Shown one piece after another: positions 13,357 to 63,846 of a stretch of DNA of 64,000 nucleotides. The position numbers and the translations under genes were made by a program. Under the pieces are notes generated by a model, which was given only the letters and a program-made list of their open reading frames with translations, did no database searches and was not told the origin of the DNA. The DNA comes from an uncultured Alphaproteobacteria bacterium. Its GTDB lineage: Bacteria; Pseudomonadota; Alphaproteobacteria; RF32; CAG-239. Within the stretch, counting starts at the first letter, position 1. Each line of letters starts with the position of its first letter. The stretch spans positions 5,038 through 69,037 of the forward strand of contig CANRJO010000002.1 in assembly GCA_947630965.1 (NCBI GenBank), written 5' to 3'.

Positions 13357-13358
13357 TT

Positions 13359-17821: not shown

Positions 17822-18801
17822 GAAAGGATAATGGCTGCTAAGAGCGGTATCCAGTAAAGATCTATCTGCGGGCGGGTAAATGCCTGCTCTTTTTGCGTGG
17901 GCTCCATTTCATCAATCGTTTTATACACTTCAATGAGCGCGTTTAAATTGTTTGCCTGAAAAGCTTTTCCATTTGTACTGTTGGCTAAGGCGGTTAACTC
18001 GCTATTTTCCAAGTTATCATTTTCAATCCCAAAAATTGAGCTGAAAAACGAAAATCCATCAAGCCCAACACTTATCGTATAAACTTTGGCATCTTCTTGC
18101 TTTGCTAACGCTAAGGCTTGCTCCATATTCAGACTGCCGTCATTATTTTCGCCGTCTGTGAGTAAAATAATGATTTTATCATTTAGGCTTTCGCCCGTAT
18201 TCTTTAAGGTTTTGAGTGCCATACCAACAGCATCACCAATGGCTGTGGAATTGCCTGCCATGCCTGCCGCCATGGAATCTAACACCTCTAACACCGCCTG
18301 ATGATCATAAGTCAGCGGGGCTTGTAAATAAGCCCTTGTGCCAAACAAAACAAGCCCTAGGCGGTCTTGCGGTCTGTTTTTTACAAAATCAGAAACCACC
18401 GCACGAACTGCCTGTAAGCGCGAAATTCGATTGCCTTGATAGGAAAAATCTTTCTCTAACATAGAAGTTGAAATATCCGTCACAAGCAAAATATCACGCG
18501 CATTTTGCGGCGTGCGCACAGGCTCGCCCAAAAAAACGGGACGCGCCGCTGCAAGTGTGAGCAAGAGCCAAATCAGGCTTAAGAAAATCAGGTGGCGCTT
18601 TTGATTAAAAGCATCTGTCGCACCGATTGATTTCGGGGTTTTATTGGCTATTTGTTTAAAATCTGAGACAAATGGCACCTTCAGCGCCTTTTCCTCAAGG
18701 GCTTGCACCGAACTCATAAAATGCCGCCAAATGAAAGGCACAACTAACAATAAAAACATCCATGGATAAAGAAAAGTGATCATAAATTTTCCCCTATCCA
18801 T
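17788..18801 (-). CDS. VWA-domain membrane protein, BatA-like
   Basis: N-terminal TMs, a vWFA domain with MIDAS motif DISTSM, and a C-terminal TM. Confidence 0.65.
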   Translation of the reverse strand: MDRGKFMITFLYPWMFLLLVVPFIWRHFMSSVQALEEKALKVPFVSDFKQIANKTPKSIGATDAFNQKRHLIFLSLIWLLLTLAAARPVFLGEPVRTPQNARDILLVTDISTSMLEKDFSYQGNRISRLQAVRAVVSDFVKNRPQDRLGLVLFGTRAYLQAPLTYDHQAVLEVLDSMAAGMAGNSTAIGDAVGMALKTLKNTGESLNDKIIILLTDGENNDGSLNMEQALALAKQEDAKVYTISVGLDGFSFFSSIFGIENDNLENSELTALANSTNGKAFQANNLNALIEVYKTIDEMEPTQKEQAFTRPQIDLYWIPLLAAIILSCLGLILMWRF

Positions 18802-19229
18802 TTTTGTATAAACAGGCGCACTTCTTCAAAATCAGGCTCTTTAAAATTTTTGCTTTGGGCAATATAGGGGGCATAAAGCAACAAATCAGCCGCTTTGCCT
18901 TTAAGTTTATTTTTACTGTGCGTGTTTAAGAAATTGAGCCAATCCGCACCCGAAAGACCAACTGCATCAGGAAATTTGAGTCTGCAAATGCGGCGCAAAA
19001 TTTCAGAAGCTAAACGCACGGTTTGAATATTATTTTCCGGCGCGTTTTTTAATAACCTTAAAGCATAAAACTTTTTGCTTTTTATGTACCAAATTTTGCT
19101 TAATTTATAAATAAAATAAGCTGCGCAAGCTAAAATAATCAGAACAAACCAACCGTACCCCGGCACAAAAGCCAAGATATCAGCAGGCAGATGAATATCT
19201 CTTAAAAGCGGCAGATTGTCTTCCATCAT
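18780..19229 (-). CDS. DUF4381-like small membrane protein (first gene of the Bat-like operon)
   Basis: LRDIHLP motif followed by a TM helix and a basic stretch, the typical DUF4381 layout. Overlaps the batA-like start. Confidence 0.5.
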   Translation of the reverse strand: MMEDNLPLLRDIHLPADILAFVPGYGWFVLIILACAAYFIYKLSKIWYIKSKKFYALRLLKNAPENNIQTVRLASEILRRICRLKFPDAVGLSGADWLNFLNTHSKNKLKGKAADLLLYAPYIAQSKNFKEPDFEEVRLFIQKWIGENL

Positions 19230-19374
19230 TTACCTTCATCTCAAGTTTTAAAACAATTTAGGACGTTTTCATATAAATATCAAGTCTAAAAAAAACGATT
19301 CATTAATTGAAAATTTAATTTTTTGTGCTATGAGGCTCTATAATTGACCGATTTTTTATGAGGATAATTTCAAG

Positions 19375-20124
19375 ATGGAAACACAACAACTTACGGATAT
19401 CATGACAAACACCGCTTCACAAATGTCTTTGTGGGATATGGTCTGGGCATCAGATACGGTCACAAAGCTTGTGATGATTGGGCTGATTGCTGCCTCGGTG
19501 TGGTCGTGGGCGATTATTTTTGAAAAGTTTGCCACTTTGCGCCATGTGCGTCGGCTTTCCAAAAATTTTGAGGAAGCCTTTTGGTCGGGTGGCTCGCTTG
19601 ATAAACTTTATGATAGCATCGGCTCCAAAGCGCGTGATCCGATGTCAGCCATGTTTATGGCGGCTATGAAAGAGTGGCGCCGCACGAATATTCTTAAATC
19701 TAAGACAGACCGCGGTTTACGTGGAGCATCGCTCCAACAGCGCGTGGAAAAAGCCATGTCTATTTCCATGGATAAAGAACTTGACGAGCTTGATCATCGT
19801 ATGGGCTTTTTGGCTTCCACCGGTTCTGTTGCCCCGCTTGTAGGGCTGTTCGGCACTGTCTGGGGCATTATCAACAGCTTTAACGCCATTGCCTTAACGC
19901 AAAGTAACTCGCTCTCAGCGATGGCGCCCGGTATTGCAGAGGCTCTTTTTACCACGGCTTTCGGGCTGATTGCCGCTATTCCCGCCGTTGTGGCTTATAA
20001 TATGATTACGTCTGAAATTGACCGCTATGCCAAACGACTCGAGAATTTCAGCGGCGAATTTTTGAGCATTCTTTCCCGCGAGCTTGACGATAACGCTATT
20101 AAAGCAGAACTTGCCGGAGAATAA
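19375..20124 (+). CDS. tolQ: Tol-Pal system protein TolQ (MotA/TolQ/ExbB family)
   Basis: Three TM helices and the conserved C-terminal region …APGIAEALFTTAFGLIAAIPAV…. Followed 3 bp later by a TolR/ExbD-type gene. Confidence 0.85.
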   Translation: METQQLTDIMTNTASQMSLWDMVWASDTVTKLVMIGLIAASVWSWAIIFEKFATLRHVRRLSKNFEEAFWSGGSLDKLYDSIGSKARDPMSAMFMAAMKEWRRTNILKSKTDRGLRGASLQQRVEKAMSISMDKELDELDHRMGFLASTGSVAPLVGLFGTVWGIINSFNAIALTQSNSLSAMAPGIAEALFTTAFGLIAAIPAVVAYNMITSEIDRYAKRLENFSGEFLSILSRELDDNAIKAELAGE

Positions 20125-20126
20125 TT

Positions 20127-20549
20127 ATGCGCAACACATCTTCCCGACGCCCGAATCGACGCAACGCCACAATTAACATCACAAACCTGATGGATGTGAT
20201 GATGGTTTTGCTCGTGGTGTTTATGGTTGCCGCGCCTTTGATGACTTCAGGCATTGCGCTTAATCTGCCGAAGGTGGGCGGAAAGTCGTTTGAAGGCAAG
20301 GAAACTTCCATTAACATCAGTGTGGATAAAGAAGGGCGCTATTACATCGGCAAAACAGAGGTGGAGCCTGATAAGATTATTGCCAAAGTTAAGGCTATCC
20401 GTGGTGAAAATAGTGAAGCCACCGTGACAATCTCGGGTGATACGGAATCGGCTTACGGGCGCGTGATTAACCTGATGGCGCTCTTAAAAGAAGCTGGTTT
20501 TGAAAAAGTGGGGCTCAAAACGGAACCTCGCCCACTGAACAAAGGATAA
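20127..20549 (+). CDS. tolR: Tol-Pal system protein TolR (ExbD/TolR family)
   Basis: INITNLMDVMMVLLVVFMV N-terminal TM. 140 aa. Confidence 0.85.
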   Translation: MRNTSSRRPNRRNATINITNLMDVMMVLLVVFMVAAPLMTSGIALNLPKVGGKSFEGKETSINISVDKEGRYYIGKTEVEPDKIIAKVKAIRGENSEATVTISGDTESAYGRVINLMALLKEAGFEKVGLKTEPRPLNKG

Positions 20550-20555
20550 CGCCCG

Positions 20556-21521
20556 TTGATGAAACCTTACCTTTACAGATCTATCGGTTTGCATATTGTG
20601 GTTTTTCTGCTGTTTGTGTTGGATTTGCCCTTTATGCACGCGCGCATGACCATTGGTCAGGCACCGATTATTGTTGATCTGAAAGATGTGAAACTCGCGG
20701 AAATGACCAACTTGCCGCCCAAAGCTGTGATTGGGGATGAAAATAAAAAAGCAACGGCGCCAAAGGAAAAAAAGCCTGAATTTACACACGAGGAAACCAA
20801 AAAGCCCGATACCCCGCCGCCGGCGCCTGAAATGAAAAAGGAAGATAAAGCCGACTATGTGAAAGAAGTAAAACCTGAGCCCGCGCCAACGCCTCAACCC
20901 AAGCCAAAGCCCAAACCTGAGCCGAAGCCCAAACCGAAGCCGCAGGAAAAACCAAAACCTCAAGCACCCACGAAGCCTAAGGAACAGCCCAAGCCTAAAG
21001 CTAAAGCGCAACCCAAGCAAGCTTCGAACAATACGGTTGCTAATCCGCTTAAGAGCTTAATGGATTCCGTTTCCGCCATGGAAAAAGAGATCGGCGAGGA
21101 GGCACCTGCCGTGATTAAAGAAGGCACACCTGTTGCTAATATGGGCATTGAGGGTGGTCGCGAGGGATCGTATTTTAGCGAGCTAACCATTTCTGAAACG
21201 GATGCCATTGCGGGGCGTTTAAGAGAATGTTGGAATTTGGATCCCGGCGCGCGTGGTATTGAAAATATGGTGGTTGAAATTCGCGCCACGCTGAACCGTG
21301 ACGGCTCTTTGAAAGATGTGAAGATTTTGGACACCGCGCGTTATAATGCCGATCCACATTTCCGCGCCATTGCCGAAAGCGCCCGCCGCGCCGTGTGGAG
21401 TTGCGCCAACAAAGACAATGTGAATATCTATAAGCTCTTCCCTGAAAAGTATGCCGATAAATACAGTTTGTGGCAAACGCTTTTGTTGCGCTTTAATCCG
21501 ATGGATGCCAGCATCCAATAA
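20556..21521 (+). CDS. tolA: TolA-like protein with a Pro/Lys-rich periodic linker
   Basis: N-terminal TM, then a long PKPKPEPKPKPKPQEKPKP-type linker and a C-terminal globular domain. It occupies the position of tolA after tolQR. Confidence 0.6.
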   Translation: MMKPYLYRSIGLHIVVFLLFVLDLPFMHARMTIGQAPIIVDLKDVKLAEMTNLPPKAVIGDENKKATAPKEKKPEFTHEETKKPDTPPPAPEMKKEDKADYVKEVKPEPAPTPQPKPKPKPEPKPKPKPQEKPKPQAPTKPKEQPKPKAKAQPKQASNNTVANPLKSLMDSVSAMEKEIGEEAPAVIKEGTPVANMGIEGGREGSYFSELTISETDAIAGRLRECWNLDPGARGIENMVVEIRATLNRDGSLKDVKILDTARYNADPHFRAIAESARRAVWSCANKDNVNIYKLFPEKYADKYSLWQTLLLRFNPMDASIQ

Positions 21522-24595: not shown

Positions 24596-24900
24596 TCTAA
24601 TGGACGATTCATCGTTCAAAAAGAGGATTTGAAATTCACGTACGCTTAAGGTCTTACTCGTAAGGGTTGCCAGAAATGGCAACCCTAACTCGTTTCGGTC
24701 ACTTGCTTTGTAAAAGTTGTATCGGTCGTTATCACTTCCTCACAACTTTAACAAAGCTACGCCGCTTGTGGTAAAAACAACCCGTCGGGGTTGTTTTTAT
24801 CCTCGCGCGCTAAAATTCCAAATCCTCTTTTCTCACTTCTACTCGCCTCATTATCCGCATTCCCGCGGACTATGAAAAAAAATAAGAATTAGTTTTTTAT
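24596..24900. repeat. Repeat element C (~300 bp); second copy at 43255-43560
   Basis: Long stretches near-identical to 43255-43560, for example ctaactcgtttcggtcacttgctttgtaaaa… and ttaacaaagctacgccgcttgtggtaaaaacaacccgt.ggggttgtttttatcctcgcg.gctaaaattccaaatcctcttttctcacttctactcgcctcattatccgc. Both copies lie directly after the stop of a +-strand gene (aspS, fabG). Confidence 0.8.
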
Positions 24901-26720: not shown

Positions 26721-27476
26721 TTACTCCATTATTAAAAATAAGGAACCATCATCCCGATAAAATGCCGTGCCGTCCGCCGTTGTGACTACAGACAAGCCTT
26801 TGCGCTGAATATGGCAATTTTGTATTTTATCAGCAATCAAGGCCTCATCAGCACCATACAAAGCTCTGTTCTCCGGCGATTCTAGAAGGTACCAACCGTT
26901 TTTGTAAACAAAGCAAAACAACAAATTATCAGCAACTAACGACTCATCTTTCCGATACAAAGCCATACCTTCTTTTGACTTTAATTGATACCAACCGTTC
27001 AAATAAACATCGCAATGCTTGAGTTTATCCGCAACCAAACTTCCGTCTGCGCGGTACAAAGTCGTGCCTTTCTTTGTTTGCAGAAAATACCACCCGTTAT
27101 GAAAAACATGGCAATCTTCCAAATGATCAGCAACCAAAGACTCATCAGCTTGATACAATGCAAAAGATTTATCTGTTTTCAGTTTATACCAACCGTTGTC
27201 AAAAACTTGGCACTTTTTCAGTTTATCGGCAACAAGCGAATCATCGGCGCGATATAATGCGGTTCCGTTTGCCGTTTCTAACGCATACCAACTGTTTGGA
27301 TAAACGTCACAATCTTTTAACTGATTGGCAACCAAGGAGCCGTTTTTGCGGTATAAAGCATTGCCACAAGCCGAGCGCAACATGTACCAACCGTTATCAA
27401 AAATGTACCTGTGTTTCAAACATACGTGGTAAAACTTACGTAAGCGCCACTGAATTTTTTTCAAAATAGTCTTCAT
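26721..27476 (-). CDS. NGWY-repeat protein (about seven 33-aa repeats), member 2
   Basis: MKTILKKIQWRLRKF… followed by about seven tandem 33-residue repeats, each with a single Cys, NGWY, ALYRADxSLVAD. Confidence 0.55.
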   Translation of the reverse strand: MKTILKKIQWRLRKFYHVCLKHRYIFDNGWYMLRSACGNALYRKNGSLVANQLKDCDVYPNSWYALETANGTALYRADDSLVADKLKKCQVFDNGWYKLKTDKSFALYQADESLVADHLEDCHVFHNGWYFLQTKKGTTLYRADGSLVADKLKHCDVYLNGWYQLKSKEGMALYRKDESLVADNLLFCFVYKNGWYLLESPENRALYGADEALIADKIQNCHIQRKGLSVVTTADGTAFYRDDGSLFLIME

Positions 27477-27616: not shown

Positions 27617-28177
27617 CTAATAATCTCTTTCTAACAACATGCCGTCAGATCGGTATAAAGCACGACCTTTTTTCGTTCTTACTTCATACTTTCCGTCAGC
27701 GTAAACATCGCACCACTTTAGTTTATTGGCAACAAGCGATTCATCAGCGCGGTATAATGCAATTCCGTTTGCCGTTTCTAATGCATACCAACCGTTGTCA
27801 TAAACATTGCACCAATTCAACTTATCAGCCACAAGCGATTCATCGGCGCGGTATAATGCGGCTCCGTTTGGCGTTCCCAACTCATACCAATTGTTGTCAA
27901 AAAGATTGCACCAGTTCAAATTATCAGCAACAAGCGAATCATCGGCGCGGTATAATGCGGTTCCATTTTTCGTTCCCAACTCATACCAATTGTTAATCCA
28001 AATATAGCAATAAGTCAATTTATCCGCAACCAAACTTCCGTCAGATCGGTATAAAGCCGTTCCGTTTGGCGTTCTTATAAAATACCACCCATTTTCAAAA
28101 ACATACCTGTCCTTTAAAAAATAGTCATGATAAAGCTTGCGCAAATGCTGCTTAATCTTTTTCAAAATAGTTTTCAT
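27617..28177 (-). CDS. NGWY-repeat protein (about five repeats), member 3
   Basis: Start reassigned to the conserved MKTILKKIKQHLRKL. The ORF track begins 8 codons earlier. The upstream leader is conserved with members 1 and 2. Confidence 0.5.
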   Translation of the reverse strand: MKTILKKIKQHLRKLYHDYFLKDRYVFENGWYFIRTPNGTALYRSDGSLVADKLTYCYIWINNWYELGTKNGTALYRADDSLVADNLNWCNLFDNNWYELGTPNGAALYRADESLVADKLNWCNVYDNGWYALETANGIALYRADESLVANKLKWCDVYADGKYEVRTKKGRALYRSDGMLLERDY

Positions 28178-28385
28178 AATTTTTATTTTTTTAATAATCA
28201 TACAAAATAATTTTCTTTCGGGGCGGATGTTAGCATCTTTTTTATGGAAATCAACAAAAAAATCCCAAGCAATACTAAAATGCAGCTCTTGGAATAAAGC
28301 TGTTACGTATTTATTGACTTATTTGGGCATATTTGGTAACATTTGAAAAAGCATTGTTCATATTGGCTTTATAAAATTATTCAGA

Positions 28386-32848: not shown

Positions 32849-34054
32849 TTACTTGCTCGTCCAGTTTGGTGAGGAAGGAATATCCGTCAACGTTGTTGTC
32901 GCAGATGCTGTCGGGTGGTATGAAACACCTTTATAAACCAATGTGTCCGTCAAGTTAGAGGCGGTGATTTCTATAGTTTCCGGCCAAAGATCCGAACCAC
33001 CCTCTAACTCCAGAAAAACGGGTTTTTGCGGGGTGCCTGACAATACCAAATTATACTTATATTGCTTTTCATTTGTCATGCGCTCCGTAATATTGAAAGT
33101 AACCCGGCTTCCTTCCTCAATAACATATTCTCCCTTATGATCATAAGCAAAAAGTTTTTCTGCCGTTATGTTCGCCGTTGTTCCCTTAAATCTGAAAGGA
33201 GCTCCGTTAGAAAAAGTGTTTGCTTTCGTAATATTTATTTGCGCATTCTCAAAAGTTAACTCTGAGCCATGAAAAACACTTCCGTTAGGATTTGTGAAAG
33301 AGGCTGTCAAATCGGTGCCCGCAAATTGAACTTTTGAGGATGTGAAAACATTACAATGTATAGAGTTAATATCAAGGTCAATTTTATCTTTTAAAACATA
33401 AGTTGCCTTATTGAACGCCACATTTATTTGATTTTCTGTCACCTTAGAATCATAAATTAAAGAAACATTTTCTAAAGAAATCTCGTTTTCTGTATTAGAA
33501 CTGTTAAGGTAAACATTGTTATTGTGAGTTATGCTGTCTTGATGATGCAGATTAATGTTTTTGAAAGCGGTGTTGTTTTCTGCCGTAATGACTGTTTTAT
33601 TTGCTTGATTCGCGGAAGTTGATAACGTATGTCCGCCACCGTCAATCGTAGTGTTGGCGGCAAGCGTAAAGCCTTGGTTTGTTGGAATTGTGATGTCGCT
33701 TTTCATCGTGATGAGCTTGCATTTTCCTGAACCGGCGAGGTATTTAAGTTCGTCGTAGTTGGTCGCGATACAAGCTTTTTGACAAAGTGTTAAATTTTCA
33801 TTGCCCCTACATTTAATGATGTCAGCGCACCACGATGTTTTGTCCGATTCTGTAAAGCCAAGCTTGGTGCAATCGTAATTGACGCATCTTTTATAGGACT
33901 TATCAAAAGGGCAATACATATACCCGTTATCCGCACAGTTCGGGTCATTATCTTTGGAATAACCCAAGCTCGCGCAATCTGGCACTTTCTCACAATCCAT
34001 GGCATTTGCCACATTCGCAAACATCAAAGCCAACAAAAACAAAATATAGCGCAT
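32849..34054 (-). CDS. Secreted cysteine-rich protein with an N-terminal Cys module and a beta-helix-like Asn/Thr-rich C-terminal region (paralog of 62623-63846)
   Basis: Start reassigned to MRYILFLLALMFANVANA (signal peptide). An 8-Cys module DCEKVPDCASLGYS…NCADNGYMYCPFD…C..YDC. Then TIDGGGHTL and N-rich repeats. Confidence 0.5.
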   Translation of the reverse strand: MRYILFLLALMFANVANAMDCEKVPDCASLGYSKDNDPNCADNGYMYCPFDKSYKRCVNYDCTKLGFTESDKTSWCADIIKCRGNENLTLCQKACIATNYDELKYLAGSGKCKLITMKSDITIPTNQGFTLAANTTIDGGGHTLSTSANQANKTVITAENNTAFKNINLHHQDSITHNNNVYLNSSNTENEISLENVSLIYDSKVTENQINVAFNKATYVLKDKIDLDINSIHCNVFTSSKVQFAGTDLTASFTNPNGSVFHGSELTFENAQINITKANTFSNGAPFRFKGTTANITAEKLFAYDHKGEYVIEEGSRVTFNITERMTNEKQYKYNLVLSGTPQKPVFLELEGGSDLWPETIEITASNLTDTLVYKGVSYHPTASATTTLTDIPSSPNWTSK

Positions 34055-34083
34055 TTTCTTCTCCTTATTCGAATCGATCAAAA

Positions 34084-34175
34084 AAAGGGTACCTTTAAAT
34101 GCAACGCGTTAACCAACGCAAAATTGCGGGTTTTAGAGCTTGACAAGCCCATTTTTTTAGGGTACCTTTTTTTGC
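34084..34175. promoter_or_regulatory. ~92-bp element bounded by GGTACC-centred palindromic boxes (AAAGGTACCTTTAAA) around an embedded TTGACAAG, upstream of the Cys-rich gene
   Basis: Near-identical full copies at 62364-62458 and 63906-64000. Isolated boxes at 34265-34283, 34348-34367 and 37640-37660. Confidence 0.5.
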
Positions 34176-34596
34176 TTTTAGCGATCTTTACAATCAAGGA
34201 AAAATTAAAATGTTTTGAAAACTCGATGTTCATTCGAGCTATTAACTTTTTGAAATATAACGAAAAAAGGTACCTTAAAAAAGTGCCTTTGTCAATAATA
34301 AAAAATCAAGTAAATTCAATGTTTCGTGGTTTTTAAAAGTATAGCAATTTTAAGGTACCCTTTTTTTGATATATTCGAATCGAGAGGGGGAAATTTTTTT
34401 CTAAACAAGGAAAATGGACTATTTTGGGCTTTAAGCAACGCAAATTCGGGAATATGCCGTATTTTGCACCCCCTCAATGCTAAAAGCCCAAAGCCTCTTT
34501 TAAAAAAAGACGTTTGTCTTTGGAGTAAAGATTTTAAAAAATCGCTCAGAAATTAGACAAATGGTCGTTTTTTAAGAGGTTAAAGGAAGGGTAAGG

Positions 34597-37317
34597 ATGC
34601 GTAAAGTAGCGGCAATTATTTTTTTGGGCCTCATCAGCTTAAGCACTTCTGTGTATGGCGCATGTTTTAACGAGTGCAAAGCCGTGCCGGAATGTGCCAA
34701 AATGGGGTATAAATTACAAGGGGATATTTTCTGCCCTGATGGTTACATTACGTGTCCGTTCGATTCCCAATATATTTGGTGTAAAGAATATACCTGTAAA
34801 GATGGACGTTATAGTGATACGGAAGAGCTAACGGGCGAGAAAGGTTACGTTTGCGATGAGGTAGATTATCATCATCGGAAGTGTTATCATTGCCATTGTG
34901 ATCCTGACCCCGAAGAGTGTCAATGGAGTAATCTCAACAAAGGCGTTGGCGAGTTAGGCGATAGATGTTGTGACGGGCACTATGCCAGTTGTAGAAATTT
35001 ATGCCAAGACAAGGTCAGCGTGCCGGCTCACGCGCATGGTAATAAAGAGTCTTGCACGGGGTGCAATATTACAAAAGATATTATCACAAGTTGGTCATGT
35101 GATGACTGGTATGATCAAATGGGCGAAGCCTGTTATGCCCGCCAATGCCCCGATGGTTATACCATAACAGATGCTCGTATTGAGGATTGTGGACGCACAA
35201 AAGATCAAGGTTGGACATGGGAGAGCAAAGGTCAAAGCGGCGAGCAGATTTGCGGCAAATGCACCGCAAAGAGTTGTTCAGGCGATTACAGCACAGATTA
35301 CCCAGGCGTGGATAGTTGTGGCGATAGCGGCTCCAAGGGGTGGACTTGGAACCAAAGCGGTTGGAGTGGCGATGACGCCTGCGGCAAATGTACGGCAAAA
35401 GAGTGTTTACCAGGTTTTAGCACACAATATTCAAGTATAGCGAGTTGTGGCACAAGTGGCAACAAGGGTTGGACATGGGAGCAATCAGATCAATATGCGG
35501 GTAATGACATTTGCGGGAAATGCACCAAGAAAGAATGTGAAGAAGGTGACACTGACCCCGATATCAAGAGTTGCAAGTTTGAAAGCGATTATTTAGGAAG
35601 CAAGACTGAAAACGGATATTATAGCGAAGATAAAAAGTGTTACACTTGCCATTGTGCGGCGAATGATACGAACTGTCATTGGAGTGAGGGAAACAAAGGT
35701 CAGGGCAGATTGGAAACAAAATGTTGCAATGGTAAATATGCTACCTGCACATCAAATTGCGTTAAAGTTGAAGTGCCGGATCATGGTCAATGTGCTGATC
35801 GTTGCACAGGCTGTGAAACGGAAGTTTGTTCAGCATATAGTTGCGATAAAGGTTATCAAAAGGATAATTCACAGACAAAATGCGAAGTGGCGCCTTGTGC
35901 CAATGGTACGGCAACGGAAGCGAGCAAATGCGGGAATGGAACCGGTGCTGCAAATGGTTGGGAAACGAGCACTGACACAGGTCATTTAAGTGGTGAGAAG
36001 AAGTGTTATCAATGTACCATGAAAGATTGTCCGACAGGTGAGAGCACCGATTATCAAGATGTCAGCAAGTGTGGCACAGGTGCTTCTAAGGGAGCCGGGT
36101 GGACGAATAAGGGCACAACAAATTATCATGGCGACACAAGATGTTACAGTTGCAGTAAGAAAGCATGCACGGGTGGTTACGATACAAAATATAAAGATGT
36201 CAACAGCTGCGGCAAAGCGGGCGACAGTGGTTGGGACTGGAGCACAAACGGTTGGAGCGGTGATGAAGTGTGTGGTAAATGCACGCCTAAAACATGCCCG
36301 AATGGATACAGCAGCGAAAAGAAGAGTATTGATGATTGCGGCACCACAAAAGATAAAGGTTGGACATTTGAAAAATCTTCCACCAATTCCGGAGAGAATG
36401 TTTGCGGTAAGTGTGATGCTCGCCAGTGCCCAACTGATGAGAACACAAATGCTTCAGCATCAGATTGTGGCACAAGCGGTGAAAACGGTTGGACAAAGAA
36501 AACAACGGGGCATTTTGCGGGAGATAATGCTTGCTATAAGTGCGAGAAAAAGGTATGTGAAGGAGGTTCTAGCACCAAGTACCAAAGCATAAGTGACTGC
36601 TCGGCGGGGTGTGCAACTTACCACTCTGAGGGTTATTCAGGTGATCAAAAGTGTGGCGTTTGCTATTATACCGTTGATGAGCAGGTTCCTGAGAATGCAA
36701 CATGTACGTACACAACCAAATGCGAGAGAGGCACAGCCTGTACGAAATGGGATTGTAACGAGGGCTATACAAAATCAGCAGATGGCAAGAAATGTGATGT
36801 TGCCAAATGTCCGGAGGGATACGACGTACAGAAACAATCAGGCCCTGATTGCGGTAATGAAAGTGGTTGGCGTGTGGAAACTCTGGGCAAGAGCGGCAAT
36901 AAAAATTGCGGTAAATGCATTTGTGAGTCTAGTTGCACCTGGGACAATAACAATAAAGGCGAAAAAGGATCCTTAACTAATAAATGTTGCAATGGTAAAT
37001 ATGCCAATTGCACCAATAACTGCCCGAATGTTCAGGTGCCTCCGAACGCTTATGGAACAAACCCTTGCACGGCTTGCAATCAAGCGGTCAGATACGGCGG
37101 TTGGGAATGTAATGAAGGTTTCTTGAAATTAGACGGCGCATGCGTTGAGCAATGCAAAGACCCGCAAGTGGACTATGAAACTTGTTGGAATGGAAGTTTC
37201 GCCTCAGGCGGCGGTTTGTCTGACTGCGATAAGCAAGGCTATAAACACTCCAAAGGGGATTGCACTAACTTTATTGCTTGTCCGACGAATGCTAATAAAA
37301 TCCGTTGCTTACATTAG
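34597..37317 (+). CDS. Large secreted cysteine-rich modular repeat protein (906 aa)
   Basis: Signal peptide MRKVAAIIFLGLISLSTSVYGA. An N-terminal Cys module related to the 32849 and 37758 genes. About ten ~40-aa repeats of the form DCG.SG.KGWTWE..G.SG…CGKCT.K.C. Three ~50-aa modules of the form C.C..…W…NKG.G.L…CCNGKYA.C..NC..V.VP. GGA RBS upstream. Confidence 0.55.
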   Translation: MRKVAAIIFLGLISLSTSVYGACFNECKAVPECAKMGYKLQGDIFCPDGYITCPFDSQYIWCKEYTCKDGRYSDTEELTGEKGYVCDEVDYHHRKCYHCHCDPDPEECQWSNLNKGVGELGDRCCDGHYASCRNLCQDKVSVPAHAHGNKESCTGCNITKDIITSWSCDDWYDQMGEACYARQCPDGYTITDARIEDCGRTKDQGWTWESKGQSGEQICGKCTAKSCSGDYSTDYPGVDSCGDSGSKGWTWNQSGWSGDDACGKCTAKECLPGFSTQYSSIASCGTSGNKGWTWEQSDQYAGNDICGKCTKKECEEGDTDPDIKSCKFESDYLGSKTENGYYSEDKKCYTCHCAANDTNCHWSEGNKGQGRLETKCCNGKYATCTSNCVKVEVPDHGQCADRCTGCETEVCSAYSCDKGYQKDNSQTKCEVAPCANGTATEASKCGNGTGAANGWETSTDTGHLSGEKKCYQCTMKDCPTGESTDYQDVSKCGTGASKGAGWTNKGTTNYHGDTRCYSCSKKACTGGYDTKYKDVNSCGKAGDSGWDWSTNGWSGDEVCGKCTPKTCPNGYSSEKKSIDDCGTTKDKGWTFEKSSTNSGENVCGKCDARQCPTDENTNASASDCGTSGENGWTKKTTGHFAGDNACYKCEKKVCEGGSSTKYQSISDCSAGCATYHSEGYSGDQKCGVCYYTVDEQVPENATCTYTTKCERGTACTKWDCNEGYTKSADGKKCDVAKCPEGYDVQKQSGPDCGNESGWRVETLGKSGNKNCGKCICESSCTWDNNNKGEKGSLTNKCCNGKYANCTNNCPNVQVPPNAYGTNPCTACNQAVRYGGWECNEGFLKLDGACVEQCKDPQVDYETCWNGSFASGGGLSDCDKQGYKHSKGDCTNFIACPTNANKIRCLH

Positions 37318-37339: not shown

Positions 37340-37374
37340 GACCGCCCCGAAAGTTCGGGACGGTCTTTTTCTTG
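37340..37374 (+). terminator. Rho-independent terminator after the 906-aa gene
   Basis: gaccgccccgaaagttcgggacggtc hairpin followed by tttttcttg. Confidence 0.6.
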
Positions 37375-37757
37375 AAAATAACCTTAAGCGTTTACAATCA
37401 GGCACTTTTTACAATTAATAGCTTTCGCTACACCGGCAAACAATGAAACAACAAAAACAAAATATATTTCTTTCCATTCCTTGCGTCTGCCTGCTGATGT
37501 TATTCTGAGGCGAAACTGAAGAATCTAGGTGGAAAATATAGCTCATTTGTTGTCCTGGACTCTTTGCCTATGGCTCAGAGTGACGGTTTGGAGTGTGTTT
37601 TACTCCTTTCCCGATGTTCGAGGTTGGCGAATCGATCAAAAAAAGGGTACCTTTAAATTGCTATATCAGAGCAACAAAAAACGTCCATTTTGAAATGGAC
37701 GTTTTTGTTAAGAACGATATTTTTTTCTAGCTTCTTATTCTTGCGGTTGCTTTCCGA

Positions 37758-38090
37758 TTAAAGGCATTTATAAAAGCCACCGCAAGTGTCACGGCTAGCG
37801 CGGAGCCCTGCCTTCACACAATCCTCTTTAGAAAAGGCATAATCCTCCGAGCAGCAACTTTTATAATACCATCTGTGATAAGGGCAAGGGTTTGTTAACC
37901 GATAACCTGCCTGGCATTTTGTTAGAGTATAACCTTCTGCCCGGCATTTTTCTTCCGGTTGTTTTTGTGAGGAACCAGTGCTCGTGTTACCCGAGCTCTC
38001 GCCCGGCAAAAACATCACTCCGGCATGAGCCGAAAACGCAAATGAGCCTAAAAAGAGCAATGTTAAGATTGTTAATTTCGTTTTGACCAT
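37758..38090 (-). CDS. Small secreted cysteine-rich protein (110 aa) related to the N-terminal Cys module family
   Basis: Signal peptide MVKTKLTILTLLFLGSFAFSAHA. KCRAEGYTLTKCQAGYRLTNPCPYHRWYYKSCC… resembles the GY…C.DGY..CPFD module. Confidence 0.4.
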   Translation of the reverse strand: MVKTKLTILTLLFLGSFAFSAHAGVMFLPGESSGNTSTGSSQKQPEEKCRAEGYTLTKCQAGYRLTNPCPYHRWYYKSCCSEDYAFSKEDCVKAGLRASRDTCGGFYKCL

Positions 38091-43113: not shown

Positions 43114-43139
43114 TAGGGAAAGGCGTCTAGCTGGCACCT

Positions 43140-43215
43140 AGAGCAATTTAAGGGGAAAAAGTGTCCTCACGTACTTCTTATGTACGCTGCGGTACTTTTT
43201 CCCCTTAAATCACTC
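43140..43215. repeat. Palindromic repeat element A copy, immediately after the fabG stop
   Basis: aatttaaggggaaaaagtgtcctcacgtac…gtacgctgcggtactttttccccttaaat: a long inverted repeat whose core gtgtcctcacgtac…cgtacgctgcggtac is shared with 6281-6357 and 61881-61953. Confidence 0.75.
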
Positions 43216-43254
43216 TATCTGCACACGCTATCCACCTTTCCTTCGGTTTTGGAA

Positions 43255-51065: not shown

Positions 51066-54000
51066 CTAGAACTTGTATTTGGCTGAGAGAATGCCGCTAT
51101 GATCTTCGAAATCTTTGCGGAACTTGCCTTCATAGCCGGCGGAAATATCCCAACTTTCGTTCAAGGAAGCTGTTAAGCCAACACCGGCTTCAACGCCAAA
51201 GCGTTCTAAGCTCTCGCCTTCAACCCGGTAGGAGCTGCTACCGACATTGACAACGGCGCTGTTATCGCCATCCATCAAGTCGTAGGTCACGCCCAAGCGT
51301 GCTTCAGGACGGAGGCTGATGCCGTTGTCAAACGCCACTTCTTTGGACGCTTTCACATCGGCAACCGCGGTCAAGATGTCTTGATCTTCGGCTTTCACAC
51401 GCTGACCTGCCGTGTCTGTGTAGGCTTCCTGATCAAGGTGTGCATAACGCAAACCAATTTCAGGTGTCACGTTCACGCTGCCTGCCAAGGCTTCATAGCC
51501 TGTCATAGCTTGCAAGCCGAAGACATCAACGTCATACTTGCCGCTGAAACCGCCTAACAAGCTGCTCTTCTTTTCTTTGTACTTAGACATACCATAAGAA
51601 GCAATGCCGTTGACATACCAGTTGCTCGGCTTATATTCGCCATAAAGCATAAAGGTGTGCGAATCGACATCAATATCGCGGTGATGACCGTCAATTTCCG
51701 TATCGCCATAAGCATAAGCAACACCGAGTTTCACGTTATCTGCCACTTCATGATGTGCACCAAAAGCAACGCCTTTTGTCTTGGCATCAAAACCTTTTGC
51801 CTCAGACATATCGTCAACGGTGGACTTGTTAAACAAAGCTTTCACCCAAACAACAGCCTTGTCAAACACGCCGTCGCCCGAAGATTTTCCGGCGGAAGCT
51901 GTGTCAATGCTGTTGGTGCTCAAGTTTGCGCTTACAGCGCCATAGGCGTGAGCCAATTGGTTGGTTTCAACTGTTTGAACGACAGGTGCGAAAGCCGGCG
52001 CCACGTCTTCAGCAAGTGCGGCAACGGTGTTTACATCGTGCTTTTGCAGATGTTCATACATGAAATCATGAATCTCTTTGGCTTTGCCATCCAGATTTTT
52101 CTCTAAGGCGAAAGCGCTCATCGCATTGGAAGCGTTTTCACCCGCACCGGCTTCTTGAGCTTTGGAAGCAATTCTTTCCGCCGAGTTCTTTGAGGCAACG
52201 ACTTGATTGCCTTCAACATTCAAATCATAAAGAACGTTTTCAGCGTGAAGTTTGCTCTTCTCGCCTTTCAAGAGTTCGTCTGTTACGACCTTGCCAAAGT
52301 TAAGCGCTTGGCCATCAATGACGTCACCGGCTTCTTCAGTAACATAAAAGTCAAGTGTGGCATTGCCATTTACGGTTAAATTGGCATAATCATCTTCATC
52401 GGATCTGATTTTACCGTTCACAAGAATGTCATTGTCAGCTTTTTCAACATCAACATGTAAGACGGAGCCATCCTTTAACGTTACGGCGCTGTCATATGTA
52501 CTTGTGCCTAGGTCAAGTGTGCCTGCAACGGCTGTTTTGGCAATGTCGTAATATGCGTCATCCACATGGAGCGTGGCATCCTTTTGGATTACAACTTTAT
52601 TGGCCGTGAATAGTTTTGTATTGTCTAGTGTGAACTCATGGCCGCCTGTGACAGTCATTCTCTTAAGCTCTGCTTTGCCACCAAAGAGACTGCCTGATGA
52701 GGTGTCGGCATTGATGTTTAAGTCTTTCAACAACCCACCTTCTGCAGTTTCCTGAATGGATTTAATTTTAGCTTCGGCTGAGTTGACGTTGATTGTGCCG
52801 ACATTTTCACCACCTATGATGCCGTCAATCTCGCCTTCAAGGTTTATAACAGCATCTTCATCATCCAATGTGAACGTTGATTTATTGATCGATTTCATCA
52901 CGCCGCCTTTTTTGACATTAATGGTGGCATTTTCAATGAACATATTGCCTTTATCATTCTTAGCTGTTCCGTCGCCTAAGGCGCCTTGTAGAAGCATACC
53001 GCCATCATCAATGGTAACCTCGGCACCATCGATTGTGTTTTCATCATCATAACCTGCAATATAGGCTTTGTTGCCATCGGCATCAGTGCCACCAATGTAA
53101 ACTTTAGTACGAATGATGCCTTTATCATCCGTATCGCCGTCAATCGTAAAATCAACGGCATCAATATTGGCGCCGTTCTTGACGGAAATGGTGTCGAGAT
53201 CATTTAGGAGAATTGTACCGCTTTCAACAGAGGCATCGTTATTATCATGTGTGTGAACGGCCACAATTCTTGCGCCATTTTCCAAGCTTATATTGCCACC
53301 ATCAACAGTAATGGTAAAATCTTCATCTCCTTTTGCTCTCTCAGTACTCTCTGTATGTGTGTCTCGACCTAACCAGCCACCATCAGAGTGATAATTTATG
53401 TTTTTCAATTCTAAATTATAAGAAGCAACCACTTTACCTTTATTTTCAATATTGGCGCCGTTCCCTTGACCTGTAATAATGAGGGGAGCAAGGCCCACAT
53501 ATTTTTGATCATCCGTGGTATTTGTCCCGTTACCGCCGTAAATCAGGTGGTCACCTTCTTCAAAGGTCAACGTTTTGTTTTCTGAAATATCTAAATAATG
53601 AGCAGTACCGTTTTTGGGTTTATTATTATACAAATAAATGTTGGTGCCATCTGCCATTTCGACATTGCCGACTGTCAGAGGCTTTCCTTTCTCTTCATTA
53701 TTTGGGTTTGAATTTTGACCAATAATAAGCTCACCTTCCGTAATGCCGGAAGTGCCTTTTTCAATCCGGAGATCAATGCCGCTTAAGTCAACACCTTTAA
53801 GGTCTTTCCACTTTTCTACGCCGGATTTAATACCGTCAACGGTTAAATAACCTTGCACGGTCATTTTATGTCCGCCTGTTAATTTTGAGCCATCATGAAC
53901 TGTAACCCAATGCCCTAACGTGACATCGTTTTCTACCTTAACGTCTTCACCGTTAATGTTAATGCGCGCACTTGAACTGTCGTGACTTGTTACATCACTT

Positions 54001-54110
54001 TCAACAATCAATGATGTGTAGTCATTCTTTGCAGCTTCTTCTGCTTGCGCATTTGAAACCGCAAAGGCGACACTCACGAGCGCTGTTGTTAATAAAAGAT
54101 TATTCTTCAT
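51066..54110 (-). CDS. Autotransporter (type Va) outer-membrane protein with a beta-helical passenger
   Basis: Signal peptide MKNNLLLTTALVSVAFAVSNAQA. A long Gly/Asn/Asp-rich passenger with repetitive beta-strand motifs. A C-terminal ~280-aa beta-barrel ending …LSAKYKF. Confidence 0.75.
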   Translation of the reverse strand: MKNNLLLTTALVSVAFAVSNAQAEEAAKNDYTSLIVESDVTSHDSSSARININGEDVKVENDVTLGHWVTVHDGSKLTGGHKMTVQGYLTVDGIKSGVEKWKDLKGVDLSGIDLRIEKGTSGITEGELIIGQNSNPNNEEKGKPLTVGNVEMADGTNIYLYNNKPKNGTAHYLDISENKTLTFEEGDHLIYGGNGTNTTDDQKYVGLAPLIITGQGNGANIENKGKVVASYNLELKNINYHSDGGWLGRDTHTESTERAKGDEDFTITVDGGNISLENGARIVAVHTHDNNDASVESGTILLNDLDTISVKNGANIDAVDFTIDGDTDDKGIIRTKVYIGGTDADGNKAYIAGYDDENTIDGAEVTIDDGGMLLQGALGDGTAKNDKGNMFIENATINVKKGGVMKSINKSTFTLDDEDAVINLEGEIDGIIGGENVGTINVNSAEAKIKSIQETAEGGLLKDLNINADTSSGSLFGGKAELKRMTVTGGHEFTLDNTKLFTANKVVIQKDATLHVDDAYYDIAKTAVAGTLDLGTSTYDSAVTLKDGSVLHVDVEKADNDILVNGKIRSDEDDYANLTVNGNATLDFYVTEEAGDVIDGQALNFGKVVTDELLKGEKSKLHAENVLYDLNVEGNQVVASKNSAERIASKAQEAGAGENASNAMSAFALEKNLDGKAKEIHDFMYEHLQKHDVNTVAALAEDVAPAFAPVVQTVETNQLAHAYGAVSANLSTNSIDTASAGKSSGDGVFDKAVVWVKALFNKSTVDDMSEAKGFDAKTKGVAFGAHHEVADNVKLGVAYAYGDTEIDGHHRDIDVDSHTFMLYGEYKPSNWYVNGIASYGMSKYKEKKSSLLGGFSGKYDVDVFGLQAMTGYEALAGSVNVTPEIGLRYAHLDQEAYTDTAGQRVKAEDQDILTAVADVKASKEVAFDNGISLRPEARLGVTYDLMDGDNSAVVNVGSSSYRVEGESLERFGVEAGVGLTASLNESWDISAGYEGKFRKDFEDHSGILSAKYKF

Positions 54111-62622: not shown

Positions 62623-63846
62623 ATGCAATATGTGTTGATTTTGTTGGGTGTGATGTTTGCGAATGTGGCAAATGCGATGGATTGTGAGAAGGTGCCTGAT
62701 TGTGAAAGCTTGGGTTATTCCACCAAAGATGACCCAAATTGTGCGAATGATGGCTATATGTACTGTCCGTTTGATCAGGATTATAAGGTGTGCGTGCAGT
62801 ACAATTGCGCTGCCTTAGGTTTTACGGAATCGGACAAAACGTCTTGGTGTGCAGACCTCATCAAATGCAAGGGCAACGAAAAAATGACACTTTGTCAAAA
62901 ACCATGTTTTGCAACCAATTATACTAGCCTGAAAGAACTTGCGGAATCGGGAGATTGTAAAGTCACAACTGTGCAGGGCGATATCACTATCCCCGAAAAC
63001 CAAAGTGTCACTCTTGCAGAAAACACTGTCATCGATGGCGGAGGTCATACACTTTATACATCGGGAAATCAAAAAGACTTAACCGTTTTTTCCATGGGTA
63101 ACAACACAGGTTTGAAAAACCTTAAACTAAAACATACACAAAAAGAGACGCAAGATGGTTATTCTCTCTTGTTCTCTTTAGCTCCCGACGATGTCATTTC
63201 TCTTGAAAACGTGGATATTACTGTTAATTCAGACAATGTGGAAGATGTGCGCGCGCCTGTTATTGGCAATGGTATTTATAATATCCATGGAAAATTTGCA
63301 CTTACTCTAGACTCAAGGATTCGACTTATCGCTTTCCAATTTAATACCATGAATTTCACGGATGCACAGGTTTCCATTATTACTCAGGGAACGGAAACTG
63401 GTAACGCTGATATGGCGGAGGGTTCAACGTTAACGTTTACAAACTCTACAGTGGAGGTGAGTGTTGATGGCTCCACTTTTACAAAAAACGGAACTGCAAC
63501 CTTTATAAACAGTCAAGCAAACATTAGCGCAGCTGCTCTTTTCTTTGGAGATACAACAGAGAATCATGAAATCTTCTTAGATAAATCTAGCCTTACAAGC
63601 AAGACGACTTATCGTATCAGCAACCACATTCAAAAAAGCATTACCCTCAAGGGAACAGGCGAACAGCCCTCTATTTTAGAAATGACATATAATAAGCCGG
63701 ATACGGATGTTCCGACCAATATTGTGGCGACAAACACAACGGATAAAGTGATTCTTAACGGTATTACCTATCGTCCGAAACAGGCAGGAATGACTAAACT
63801 TTCGGAAATAGGTAGCTCGAAAAACTGGGAAAAGGTTTTACAATAA
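62623..63846 (+). CDS. Secreted cysteine-rich/beta-helix-like protein (paralog of 32849-34054)
   Basis: Signal peptide MQYVLILLGVMFANVANA. Cys module DCEKVPDCESLGYS…NCANDGYMYCPFD… about 70% identical to its paralog over the first 150 aa, then divergent. AAGAGGAG RBS upstream. Confidence 0.55.
   Translation: MQYVLILLGVMFANVANAMDCEKVPDCESLGYSTKDDPNCANDGYMYCPFDQDYKVCVQYNCAALGFTESDKTSWCADLIKCKGNEKMTLCQKPCFATNYTSLKELAESGDCKVTTVQGDITIPENQSVTLAENTVIDGGGHTLYTSGNQKDLTVFSMGNNTGLKNLKLKHTQKETQDGYSLLFSLAPDDVISLENVDITVNSDNVEDVRAPVIGNGIYNIHGKFALTLDSRIRLIAFQFNTMNFTDAQVSIITQGTETGNADMAEGSTLTFTNSTVEVSVDGSTFTKNGTATFINSQANISAAALFFGDTTENHEIFLDKSSLTSKTTYRISNHIQKSITLKGTGEQPSILEMTYNKPDTDVPTNIVATNTTDKVILNGITYRPKQAGMTKLSEIGSSKNWEKVLQ

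Follow-up and report, generated by a model that had tools for sequence, protein, structure and literature searches.

Cysteine-rich modules between two conserved caps in an exported protein family of gut Alphaproteobacteria

Giardia VSPs are Cys-rich proteins with frequent CXXC motifs that reside in the gut lumen, form a multigene family and are presumed to resist proteolysis. Autotransporter passengers, as a rule, are nearly Cys-free. In Myxococcus xanthus, the Cys-rich repeats of TraA have been proposed to form a rigid stalk for presenting a receptor at the surface (PMC3325183), and CysRRep, a repeat of Neocallimastix and Myxococcota, has the spacing C-x6-9-C-x5-7-C-x8-11-C-x7-8-CC (Daugavet et al. 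2026, bioRxiv 10.64898/2026.06.07.730663). How does a 906-aa Cys-rich protein from an uncultured alphaproteobacterium compare with these systems? We analyzed its gene within a 64,000-nucleotide stretch of DNA, referred to below as the window.

An intact gene for an exported protein

The open reading frame is intact (34597..37317, plus strand; 906 aa and a TAG stop), as an earlier sequence-only reading of the window had it, and its product is identical to P0001 of an NCBI-derived collection. It is a real, conserved gene for an exported protein. Direct reading of the sequence places a Shine-Dalgarno-like AGGAAGGG (34584..34591, +) 6-13 nt 5' of the ATG, while an intrinsic-terminator-like stem-loop, GACCGCCCCG-AAAG-TTCGGGACGGTC followed by the T-run TTTTTCTT (37340..37373, +), starts about 25 nt 3' of the TAG. 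The secretion claimed by that reading is borne out by a Sec-type signal peptide at residues 1-21 (34597..34659, +), assigned from sequence features to the signal peptidase I type, with the n/h/c layout MRK-VAAIIFLGLISLS-TSVYG and cleavage after MRKVAAIIFLGLISLSTSVYG and before Ala. A lipoprotein was considered and rejected: the sequence ...SVYGAC, with Tyr at -3, departs from the lipobox [LVI][ASTVI][GAS]C.

Relatives found at E<1e-3 among 1.84 billion representative proteins form 141 clusters. An N-terminal hydrophobic segment is present in 115 of the 141 representatives, the remainder being mostly fragments, and the first Cys of homologues lies 1-5 residues past the predicted cleavage site. 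The closest relatives are fragments, 70% and 59% identical. Over the first 184 residues, no Cys varies among 11 homologues (alignment A1).

Mature protein length is 885 aa (about 96 kDa, pI about 5.1). Cys accounts for 98 of the 906 residues (10.8%) and Gly for 11.8%; Leu, Ile, Val, Met and Phe together make up just 8.2% of the mature chain. The number of Cys is even, both in the protein as a whole and inside each module. Five ORFs of at least 98 aa overlap the gene. They had been described as many antisense ORFs, which proved wrong for three of the five, these being alternative sense-strand frames, and right for two. All were rejected as genes, judging from the conserved, confidently modelled frame inside which they lie.

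Repeats, large modules and terminal caps

The protein is modular and built from two kinds of repeat, as had been recognized together with its very high Cys content. The short (R) repeats number eight canonical and three variant units of ~43 aa, and a family-wide repeat HMM detects 10-11 units, in keeping with the earlier count of about ten ~40-residue repeats; the consensus then given, DCG.SG.KGWTWE..G.SG...CGKCT.K.C, was correct. Cys residues are spaced C-x21/22-C-x2-C-x4-C-x13/14 with a period of 43-46 aa. Two motifs were counted against 5000 composition-preserving shuffles: C..C....C occurs 9 times (shuffle mean 1.2, maximum 7) and GW.{8,16}C..C also 9 times (mean 0.28, maximum 4). The family consensus, likewise present here, is Cp.GY......v..Cg..g..GW.....G.SG...CGKC..K.C; across 157 family proteins there are about 740-800 R repeats, with 0-24 units per protein.

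Three large (M) modules, marked by CC[DN]G.Y at residues 124, 376 and 797, interrupt the short repeats. Their presence had been noted correctly; their length had been put at ~50 aa and is ~90 aa, a further ~40 residues having the pattern ...VP..A....C.GC....W.C.EGY....C, and the third, previously placed at 745-800, spans about 770-853. The chain begins, past its N-terminal cap, with an R0-like hairpin and M1 (aa 68-183; 34798..35145, +), which AF2 models as consecutive beta-hairpins at pLDDT 88-98 and which has the pattern KCYHCHC...CQWS..NKG...CCDGHY..C...C....VP.HA....C.GC......W.C..WY....C. R1-R3 follow (aa 184-226, 227-269 and 270-313; 35146..35535, +; pLDDT 92-98), with the pattern CP.GY......V..CG..G..GWTW...G.SG...CGKCT.K. 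A degenerate R4' (aa 314-347) then leads into M2 (aa 348-433; together 35536..35895, +), which DNA repeats D3 and D6 tie to M1 and M3. Next come R5-R9 (aa 434-477, 478-523, 524-566, 567-610 and 611-653; 35896..36555, +), a variant R10 (aa 654-689) with the degenerate half-module M2b (aa 686-737; together 36556..36807, +; pLDDT 80-98; ..VPENA.C....C....W.CNEGY.....C....), and R11 (aa 738-776) leading into M3 (aa 770-852; together 36808..37152, +; pLDDT 90-98). M2b, a fourth module of which the sequence-only reading made no mention, joins the conserved caps, the true length of the large modules, the paralogues in the window and the sense-frame ORFs as features new to this analysis. Compared as DNA, the repeats share no more than 64-86% identity over 22-59 nt and thus reflect old duplications rather than an assembly artefact; recent repeat expansion and assembly collapse were ruled out by the same identities.

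Both ends of the protein are capped. The N-terminal cap (NTD, aa 22-67; 34660..34797, +; NTD HMM E=6e-25) has the spacing C-x3-C-x5-C-x3-GY-x7-C-x3-Y-x2-CPFD-x2-Y-x2-C-x4-C, every Cys being invariant in alignment A1, and is modelled at pLDDT of about 93-96, with about 75 for the first ~10 residues. It carries the family pattern C..C...P.C...GY....C..GY..CPFD..Y.WC directly after the signal peptide. The C-terminal cap (CTD, aa 853-906; 37153..37314, +; CTD HMM E=1e-25, alignment with seven homologues) reads VDYETCW...C..QGY.....C...I.CP.....IRC, in line with the family pattern VDY..CW...C..LGY....C..Y..CP.....C; its AF2 confidence is low (pLDDT <50). Aligned by hhalign, NTD and CTD match with a probability of 90.5% (E=1.4e-6 over 31 columns), and by this profile comparison their cores are homologous "C-x3-GY...CP" mini-domains. 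The smallest family members, of 147-158 aa, consist of a signal peptide, N-cap and C-cap and nothing else, so the modules are insertions between two conserved ends. The longest member, P0057, reaches 3041 aa.

Predicted fold and cysteine chemistry

Structure prediction, which had been suggested for a single repeat, gives confident models of long segments. Residues 22-320 form an all-beta chain of hairpins (pLDDT 95) and residues 654-853 are hairpins alone (pLDDT >90); each of R1-R3 has a loop and then a long hairpin, for example W206-S214 / Q217-A224. Foldseek comparison of both models with the PDB returned no match with E<0.05. The weak matches were to eukaryotic EGF, CCP, TNFR and Eph-CRD ectodomains (E 0.06-1, TM-scores at most 0.2), those to EGF arrays having E of at least 0.15 and TM of at most 0.18. 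Searches with the 906-aa protein gave no Pfam match at E<=10, no NCBIfam family at E<=0.01 and no PDB sequence at E<=10. Judged by these searches, the three module types are previously undescribed and without a counterpart in Pfam, NCBIfam or the PDB. The architecture is, as the earlier reading had it, unusual in bacteria.

The protein had been called EGF-like or disulfide-knotted. Strings of hairpins and weak Foldseek matches sustain such a comparison as analogy; homology to EGF or to a known knot finds no support in the Pfam, NCBIfam, PDB sequence and structure searches. The EGF-like label fits in the first sense and not in the second. One relative has a weak cEGF match (E=0.037) and another an EGF_Teneurin match (7e-4) in a different region. 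Might the array nevertheless be of EGF, TNFR or CCP type, taken over horizontally from the host or a gut protist for host mimicry? The best non-significant Foldseek matches, to EphA2 CRD, Pfs25/28, factor H/CD55 CCPs, TNFR1 and an Entamoeba lectin, would point that way. We regard such an origin as most improbable, as none of these matches reaches an E below 0.06 or a TM-score above 0.2, Pfam EGF, Sushi and TNFR are unmatched even at E<=10, and the PDB sequence search is empty. Moreover, the signal-like N-terminal segment recurs in 115/141 relatives, the genomic loci are bacterial MAGs, and viral contigs scanned with the N-terminal profile yielded no relatives.

Are the Cys residues stapled together or do they hold a metal? 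Four invariant Cys per short repeat, including a CXXC, and the anoxic gut lumen would suit a metal-binding or redox-buffering protein resembling a zinc ribbon or metallothionein, with the four Cys of each repeat as ligands. The models argue otherwise: C3 and C4 of CGKC are i/i+3 in one beta-strand, and hence on opposite faces, so that one metal ion could not bind both. Two independent repeats (P0009 193-237, P0076 785-827) have each lost C2 along with C4, and C3 is relocated to the opposite strand in one repeat subtype; paired loss and relocation are the behavior that would be expected of structural disulfides. Each repeat has a single CXXC, in place of the two CXXC knuckles or four converging Cys of a zinc ribbon or Cys4 site, His/Asp ligand patterns are absent, zinc-ribbon and metallothionein families are unmatched, and the protein is exported to an oxidizing periplasm. 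We therefore find the metal reading very unlikely and infer that the Cys residues form disulfides rather than metal sites. Within the short repeat the bonds are likely C1-C3 and C2-C4, given the two cases of co-loss and the predicted strand geometry.

Family context, proposed role and known systems

The family is rare and, among the genomic loci checked, restricted to MAGs of gut and rumen Alphaproteobacteria. Source organism was examined for these loci, all bacterial MAGs; 20 of the 23 are labelled uncultured Alphaproteobacteria or Rhodospirillaceae, and the sources are rabbit, rumen, deer, yak, reindeer and human gut. Relatives' loci hold solitary genes amid housekeeping genes with no conserved partner: the neighbors are secY-adk and ftsK here, and ribosomal proteins and transketolase at the related locus L027. 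The window and a gut MAG of one relative have a collinear block of nine genes in common. Related genomes do not keep the family genes in syntenic positions. Neither here nor at related loci is a secretion or processing gene linked.

The N-cap also occurs at the start of Cys-poor beta-helix proteins, two of which are encoded in the window. A divergently transcribed paralogue, a 410-aa ORF (32849..34081, -; likely start ATG at 34054; NTD HMM E=1.8e-14) has a signal peptide and two C-x3-G[YF]..C..C(P) mini-domains, followed by a Cys-poor beta-helix-like body. It is matched twice by the CTD HMM (residues 31-68 and 69-100) and by no Pfam or NCBIfam family. Its own paralogue, of 407 aa (62623..63846, +; NTD HMM E=9e-15), has the same N-terminal mini-domains. 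A 110-aa secreted Cys-rich protein (37758..38090, -; C-x3-GY-x4-C-x3-Y-x5-CP-x8-C, a pattern seen by eye; HMM E about 0.1, no Pfam match) is probably a divergent family member. The window further contains a decayed paralogue fragment; a palindromic element bounded by AAAGGTACCTTT is repeated upstream of the paralogues and common to them. A PF03797 barrel is present in an unrelated gene at 51066-54110.

Such a set of genes recalls a variable coat of the Giardia VSP kind, a CXXC-rich, protease-resistant shell whose diverging paralogues would provide antigenic or phage-receptor variation. Points that would accord with it are the several paralogues and the decayed fragment that the 64-kb window contains, a palindrome repeated upstream of the paralogues, loss of synteny between related genomes, a variable module number (0-24 R units), the gut habitat, and about 10% Cys, each repeat having a single CXXC. 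We nonetheless hold this to be quite unlikely: there is no Pfam VSP match and no membrane anchor, the DNA repeats are old and diverged, and switching is not evident, with no invertible segments or simple-sequence tracts noticed in an unsystematic look around the gene.

Where does the protein act? Its relatives' fusion partners suggest a surface or extracellular location. An autotransporter beta-barrel is fused in 7 of 29 large members, and P0003, P0005, P0007 and P0012 place R repeats ahead of a beta-helix passenger and PF03797 barrel; other partners of R repeats are Lcl_C (three members), BspA-type LRR, DUF285, a pectate-lyase-like adhesive domain and BigA. The 906-aa protein itself has no beta-barrel, lipobox, C-terminal sorting tag or hydrophobic anchor, and no recognizable ligand-binding head domain. 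A point against the surface reading is that a folded, disulfide-bonded 96-kDa protein has no evident route across the outer membrane. It may instead be a structural protein of the periplasm or envelope, exported by Sec, oxidized by Dsb and never passing the outer membrane, as a spacer, scaffold or partner of an envelope complex. That the Sec signal is the only export signal, that an outer-membrane translocation module, anchor and linked secretion genes are all absent, and that family genes stand alone among housekeeping genes would fit this placement. We judge it rather unlikely, however, as R repeats also occur in autotransporter passengers and are joined to Lcl_C, BspA LRR and pectate-lyase-like adhesive domains, all of adhesin type and active outside the cell, and a rod whose length varies and can reach 3041 aa (P0057) fits the periplasm poorly.

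We lean towards a protein that is exported by Sec, oxidized in the periplasm and placed on or outside the cell surface as a stalk or coat, rigid and resistant to proteases. After removal of the signal peptide by signal peptidase I, the chain would fold in the oxidizing periplasm into a long series of small beta-hairpin modules, each short repeat being a loop around a two-stranded hairpin. With a hydrophobic core almost absent, up to 49 disulfide bonds would support the chain. The layout comprises an N-cap, three successive sets of a large CC module and short GW...CGKC repeats, and a C-cap; the conserved caps may serve attachment or partner binding, and the length would depend on how many modules are inserted, a number that varies. 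The product could then act as a stiff stalk, spacer or coat element outside or on the cell of a gut alphaproteobacterium, with a putative stalk, adhesin or coat function. A bolder and distinctly speculative extension is a new bacterial system of disulfide-stapled extracellular rods, comprising three new folds, in which caps join molecules head-to-tail or dock to an envelope partner to yield, in gut Alphaproteobacteria alone, a filament or coat that resists proteases, and in which the Cys-rich modules of autotransporter relatives are either carried through type V secretion or folded once it is over. Were this true, Cys-rich passengers would contradict the nearly-Cys-free rule. The autotransporter relatives offer a natural test of how far type V secretion tolerates disulfide structure. 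Little is understood of gut and rumen Alphaproteobacteria, which are uncultured; the family provides a lineage-specific, probably surface-related toolkit, could mark the gut and rumen alphaproteobacterial lineage, and gives structural biologists and protein engineers new, small disulfide-rich scaffolds to work with.

Set beside known systems, the protein resembles EGF arrays (Pfs25/Pfs28), CCP/sushi modules, TNFR CRDs and the Eph CRD in having ~40-aa all-beta modules with two or three disulfides, here putative, and little hydrophobic core. EGF has six Cys per ~40-aa module (C1-C3, C2-C4, C5-C6), whereas the short repeat has four, probably paired C1-C3/C2-C4, and, unlike the eukaryotic ectodomain arrays, is a loop-plus-long-hairpin unit of bacterial origin. 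EGF-like membership was rejected, with no Pfam EGF clan profile matched and four Cys in the short repeat. Giardia VSPs (PF03302) are alike in their about 11% Cys, frequent CXXC, gut lumen habitat, multigene family and presumed protease resistance; they differ in a C-terminal transmembrane helix and CRGKA tail that are absent here, and in switching, which is not evident. Membership was rejected, as Pfam gives no match and the C-terminus, ...CPTNANKIRCLH, has no hydrophobic segment. CysRRep shares Cys-rich repeats, secretion, gut-associated organisms and a CC doublet; identity was rejected, since the M spacing C-x2-C-x-C-x6-C-x15-CC-x6-C-x3-C departs from the published pattern. Classical autotransporters (T5aSS, PF03797) are approached through the four relatives named above that have R repeats and a barrel; being Cys-rich, those relatives are themselves atypical. 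The 906-aa protein ends in its 54-aa Cys-rich cap instead of a PF03797 barrel, and was rejected as a classical autotransporter. The Myxococcus repeats (TIGR04201 / TIGR02232) were unmatched in the NCBIfam scan (0 families at E<=0.01), whose library we take to include TIGR04201. TraA (TIGR04201) is nonetheless similar in being bacterial, Sec-exported and built from tandem short Cys-rich repeats that are assumed to be disulfide-bonded and read as a stiff stalk or spacer in surface presentation. It differs in Cys pattern, phylum and habitat, and in its PA14 head and MYXO-CTERM anchor, neither of which is present in the 906-aa protein, whose two ends are homologous caps.

Repeat architecture of the 906-residue protein

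The 906-residue protein is encoded by one uninterrupted ORF (34597-37317, + strand), as the sequence-only reading had claimed. The ATG is preceded, 6-13 nt away, by a purine-rich stretch resembling a Shine-Dalgarno sequence, AGGAAGGG, and ~25 nt beyond the TAG stop there is a stem-loop and then a T-run. Residues 1-21 (MRK, VAAIIFLGLISLS, TSVYG) are arranged like a Sec signal peptide, with probable cleavage by signal peptidase I; no lipobox was found in it. The protein contains 98 Cys (10.8%) and 11.8% Gly and is rich in Lys, Thr, Ser and Asp, with Leu, Ile, Val, Met and Phe together making up only 8.2% of the mature chain.

The Cys spacing C-x21/22-C-x2-C-x4-C-x13/14 returns every 43-46 residues. 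The patterns C..C....C and GW.{8,16}C..C occur nine times each, versus means of 1.2 (maximum 7) and 0.28 (maximum 4) when the mature sequence was shuffled 5000 times. At the DNA level, repeat copies share just 64-86% identity across 22-59 nt. The repeats are therefore ancient rather than a product of assembly.

The signal peptide (aa 1-21) is followed by an N-terminal cap (NTD or N-cap, aa 22-67), an R-like hairpin with large module M1 (aa 68-183), three canonical short repeats, R1-R3 (aa 184-313), a degenerate repeat leading into module M2 (aa 314-433), five canonical repeats, R5-R9 (aa 434-653), a variant repeat with a half-module (aa 654-737), repeat R11 leading into module M3 (aa 738-852), and a C-terminal cap (CTD or C-cap, aa 853-906). 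The large modules proposed earlier are present, including their CCNGKYA.C..NC..V.VP part, but span ~90 rather than ~50 residues, continuing as "..A....C.GC.....W.C.EGY.....C"; the third lies ~25 residues further along than had been thought. Cys number is even within every module type and in total.

Five overlapping ORFs of at least 98 aa lie inside the gene. Many antisense ORFs had been attributed to repeat composition; only two of the five are antisense, the other three being sense-strand alternative frames, but the artefact interpretation is retained. Because all five fall within a reading frame that is conserved and modelled with confidence, we regard them as side effects of the purine-rich composition (GC skew +0.2).

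Predicted fold and probable disulfide bonding

No family was found for the protein in Pfam (E<=10) or NCBIfam (E<=0.01), and no match among PDB sequences (E<=10). AlphaFold2 with family alignments gave a mean pLDDT of 95 for residues 22-320 (277 of 299 residues >=90), >90 for residues 654-853, and <50 for the C-cap. Apart from short helical turns, the models show nothing but successive two-stranded hairpins, the short repeat being an irregular loop then a long hairpin (e.g. W206-S214 / Q217-A224). Foldseek against the PDB returned nothing with E<0.05; the best non-significant matches were eukaryotic strings of small disulfide-bonded modules (the EphA2 Cys-rich domain, Pfs25/Pfs28, factor H/CD55/CD46 CCPs, TNFR1, PAPP-A and an Entamoeba lectin).

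Do the four Cys of the short repeat (C1-C4) bind metal or each other? In the model, the CGKC pair sits three residues apart on one beta-strand, so the side chains face opposite ways. C2 and C4 are replaced jointly, with C1 and C3 kept, in two independent repeats (P0009 193-237 and P0076 785-827), and a widespread repeat subtype lacks C3 on strand 2, having a Cys on strand 1 near the turn instead. These features argue against a Cys4 site and leave a metal-binding protein very unlikely. Together with export and a near-absent hydrophobic core, they indirectly favour two structural disulfides per short repeat, most simply paired C1-C3 and C2-C4.

Relatives, caps and neighboring genes

A word-indexed search with the protein detected 25 proteins. 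Searching 1.84 billion cluster representatives exhaustively with phmmer gave 141 matches at E<1e-3 (median Cys content 9.3%), of which 29 reached E<1e-30; the longest has 3041 residues. Of the 141, 115 carry an N-terminal hydrophobic segment, the remainder being mostly fragments. A short-repeat HMM (consensus Cp.GYst...v..Cg..g..GWt...nGySG...CGKCtaK.C) marks ~740-800 units in 157 of 207 collected proteins.

Scanning one genome per GTDB species, a set from which the window's own genome is absent, yielded 23 loci. Twenty are labelled uncultured Alphaproteobacteria or Rhodospirillaceae MAGs (rabbit, rumen, roe deer, yak, reindeer, human gut, faeces), two Proteobacteria only, and one Lachnospiraceae, possibly a binning error. 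A eukaryotic origin of the 906-residue protein, such as its Foldseek matches might bring to mind, seems very improbable. The viral contigs scanned held no relatives. Family genes are solitary among housekeeping genes and show no synteny between genomes. A nine-gene collinear block (TsaE, SNase, BatD, VWA-TPR, VWA, DUF4381, ExbB, ExbD and an unknown 321-aa protein) is shared by window 12874-21521 and 4704-13321 of L024, a rabbit-gut Alphaproteobacteria MAG contig (44-91% amino-acid identity). The closest full-length homologue, P0002, is encoded on that contig and adjoins the block; RNase D holds that position in the window.

By profile comparison (hhalign, NTD versus CTD core: probability 90.5%, E=1.4e-6, 31 columns), the two ends of the protein are related, with the common motif C-x3-GY-x5-8-C-x3-5-[YF][IL]-x-CP-x6-7-C. 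In the smallest family members (P0149, P0155, P0186 and P0093; 147-158 aa), nothing is present beyond a signal peptide, an N-cap with the M1 start, and the C-cap. Thus the 906-residue protein shares their frame, its M and R modules being insertions between conserved ends. A recurrent gene pair occupies ~7900-9600 in each of loci L014, L016-L020 and L022: a minimal N-cap plus C-cap protein (160-184 aa) and, directly after it, a 281-369 aa protein starting with the same N-cap.

Two ~410-aa paralogues, p410 (32849-34081, - strand, the divergent neighbor) and p407 (62623-63846, + strand, a second copy), begin with a signal peptide and two mini-domains in tandem (C-x3-G[YF]...C...C); the body that follows is poor in Cys, rich in Asn and Thr, and resembles a beta-helix. 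Pfam and NCBIfam gave no match for either. A 110-aa secreted protein (37758-38090, - strand) has a low-complexity linker and eight Cys in the family's C-x3-GY..C..Y..CP..C pattern, and matches the family HMM weakly (E ~0.1). Between it and the 906-residue gene, at 37362-37614 (- strand), is the decayed remnant of the 5' part of a p407/p410-like paralogue (identity 73% with 62464-62719, 74% with 33943-34048), its signal-peptide region interrupted by an in-frame stop. Palindromes of AAAGGTACCTTT delimit an intergenic element of 85-115 bp that occurs at 34085-34169, 62344-62458 and 63887-64000, and partially at 34263-34380 and 37628-37665, with copies 88-95% identical. Its palindrome 13-mer occurs 8 times versus 2.1 expected, and all copies but one adjoin Cys-cap family genes. 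The element was not found in 24 related loci; it may be a common promoter/operator or a small mobile element.

Elsewhere, adjacent genes at 26721-27476 and 27617-28201 (both - strand) encode 33-aa tandem repeats, NGWY.L.T.NGTALYR.D.SLVADKL..C.V (99-nt period at 27703-28074 by Tandem Repeats Finder), with no Pfam match at 1e-5, in the window's lowest-GC stretch (0.38). A 1014-aa classical autotransporter (PF03797) without Cys-rich repeats (51066-54110, - strand) and a PilS/bundlin-like type IVb pilin (7281-7955, - strand) represent additional surface structures of the organism. Other dispersed intergenic repeats (61858-62197 versus 6277-6625, 43124-43224 and 24650-24713; 64-124 nt, 78-86% identity) lie near a tRNA-His/tRNA-Ala pair and elsewhere.

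Proposed role and comparison with known systems

What might such a protein do? Among 117 relatives scanned for partner domains, seven have autotransporter beta-barrels, three Lcl_C, and one each a BspA-type LRR, DUF285, a pectate-lyase-like adhesive domain and BigA; isolated single matches to FAINT, EGF_Teneurin, DUF5874 and uDENN are weak, with no obvious surface link. The N-cap also heads Cys-poor beta-helix-like proteins, including p410 and p407. The short repeats fit a generic rigid spacer and the caps a common attachment or recognition element. The Cys-rich repeats of Myxococcus TraA, unrelated to the R repeats, have been proposed in the same role (PMC3325183). From the partner domains, the shared N-cap and this parallel, we lean toward reading the protein as exported, stapled by disulfides and resistant to proteases, serving as part of a stalk or coat at the surface or outside it. 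How it would cross the outer membrane is the weakness of this reading, since barrel, anchor and sorting tag are all absent and no secretion genes are linked to it. This absence would suit a periplasmic location, which we nonetheless consider unlikely. A VSP-like variable coat is a decidedly slim prospect.

Bacterial exported Cys-rich repeat proteins have precedents as a functional kind. Literature searches turned up nothing about the present family, whose three types of module, cap-insert-cap architecture and confinement to gut Alphaproteobacteria all appear to lack an earlier description. The "CysRReps" of one paper differ in Cys spacing from the modules described here. Four metagenomic relatives (P0003, P0005, P0007 and P0012) are autotransporters in which the parts have an unusual arrangement: a signal peptide, an ankyrin-like segment, a hydrophobic segment, many Cys-rich R repeats, a beta-helix and finally a PF03797 barrel. 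As a rule, an autotransporter passenger has no more than one Cys pair (PMC9769942). For the autotransporter relatives to have dozens is unusual, and the Cys-rich passengers of these four contrast with the usual Cys scarcity of type V passengers.
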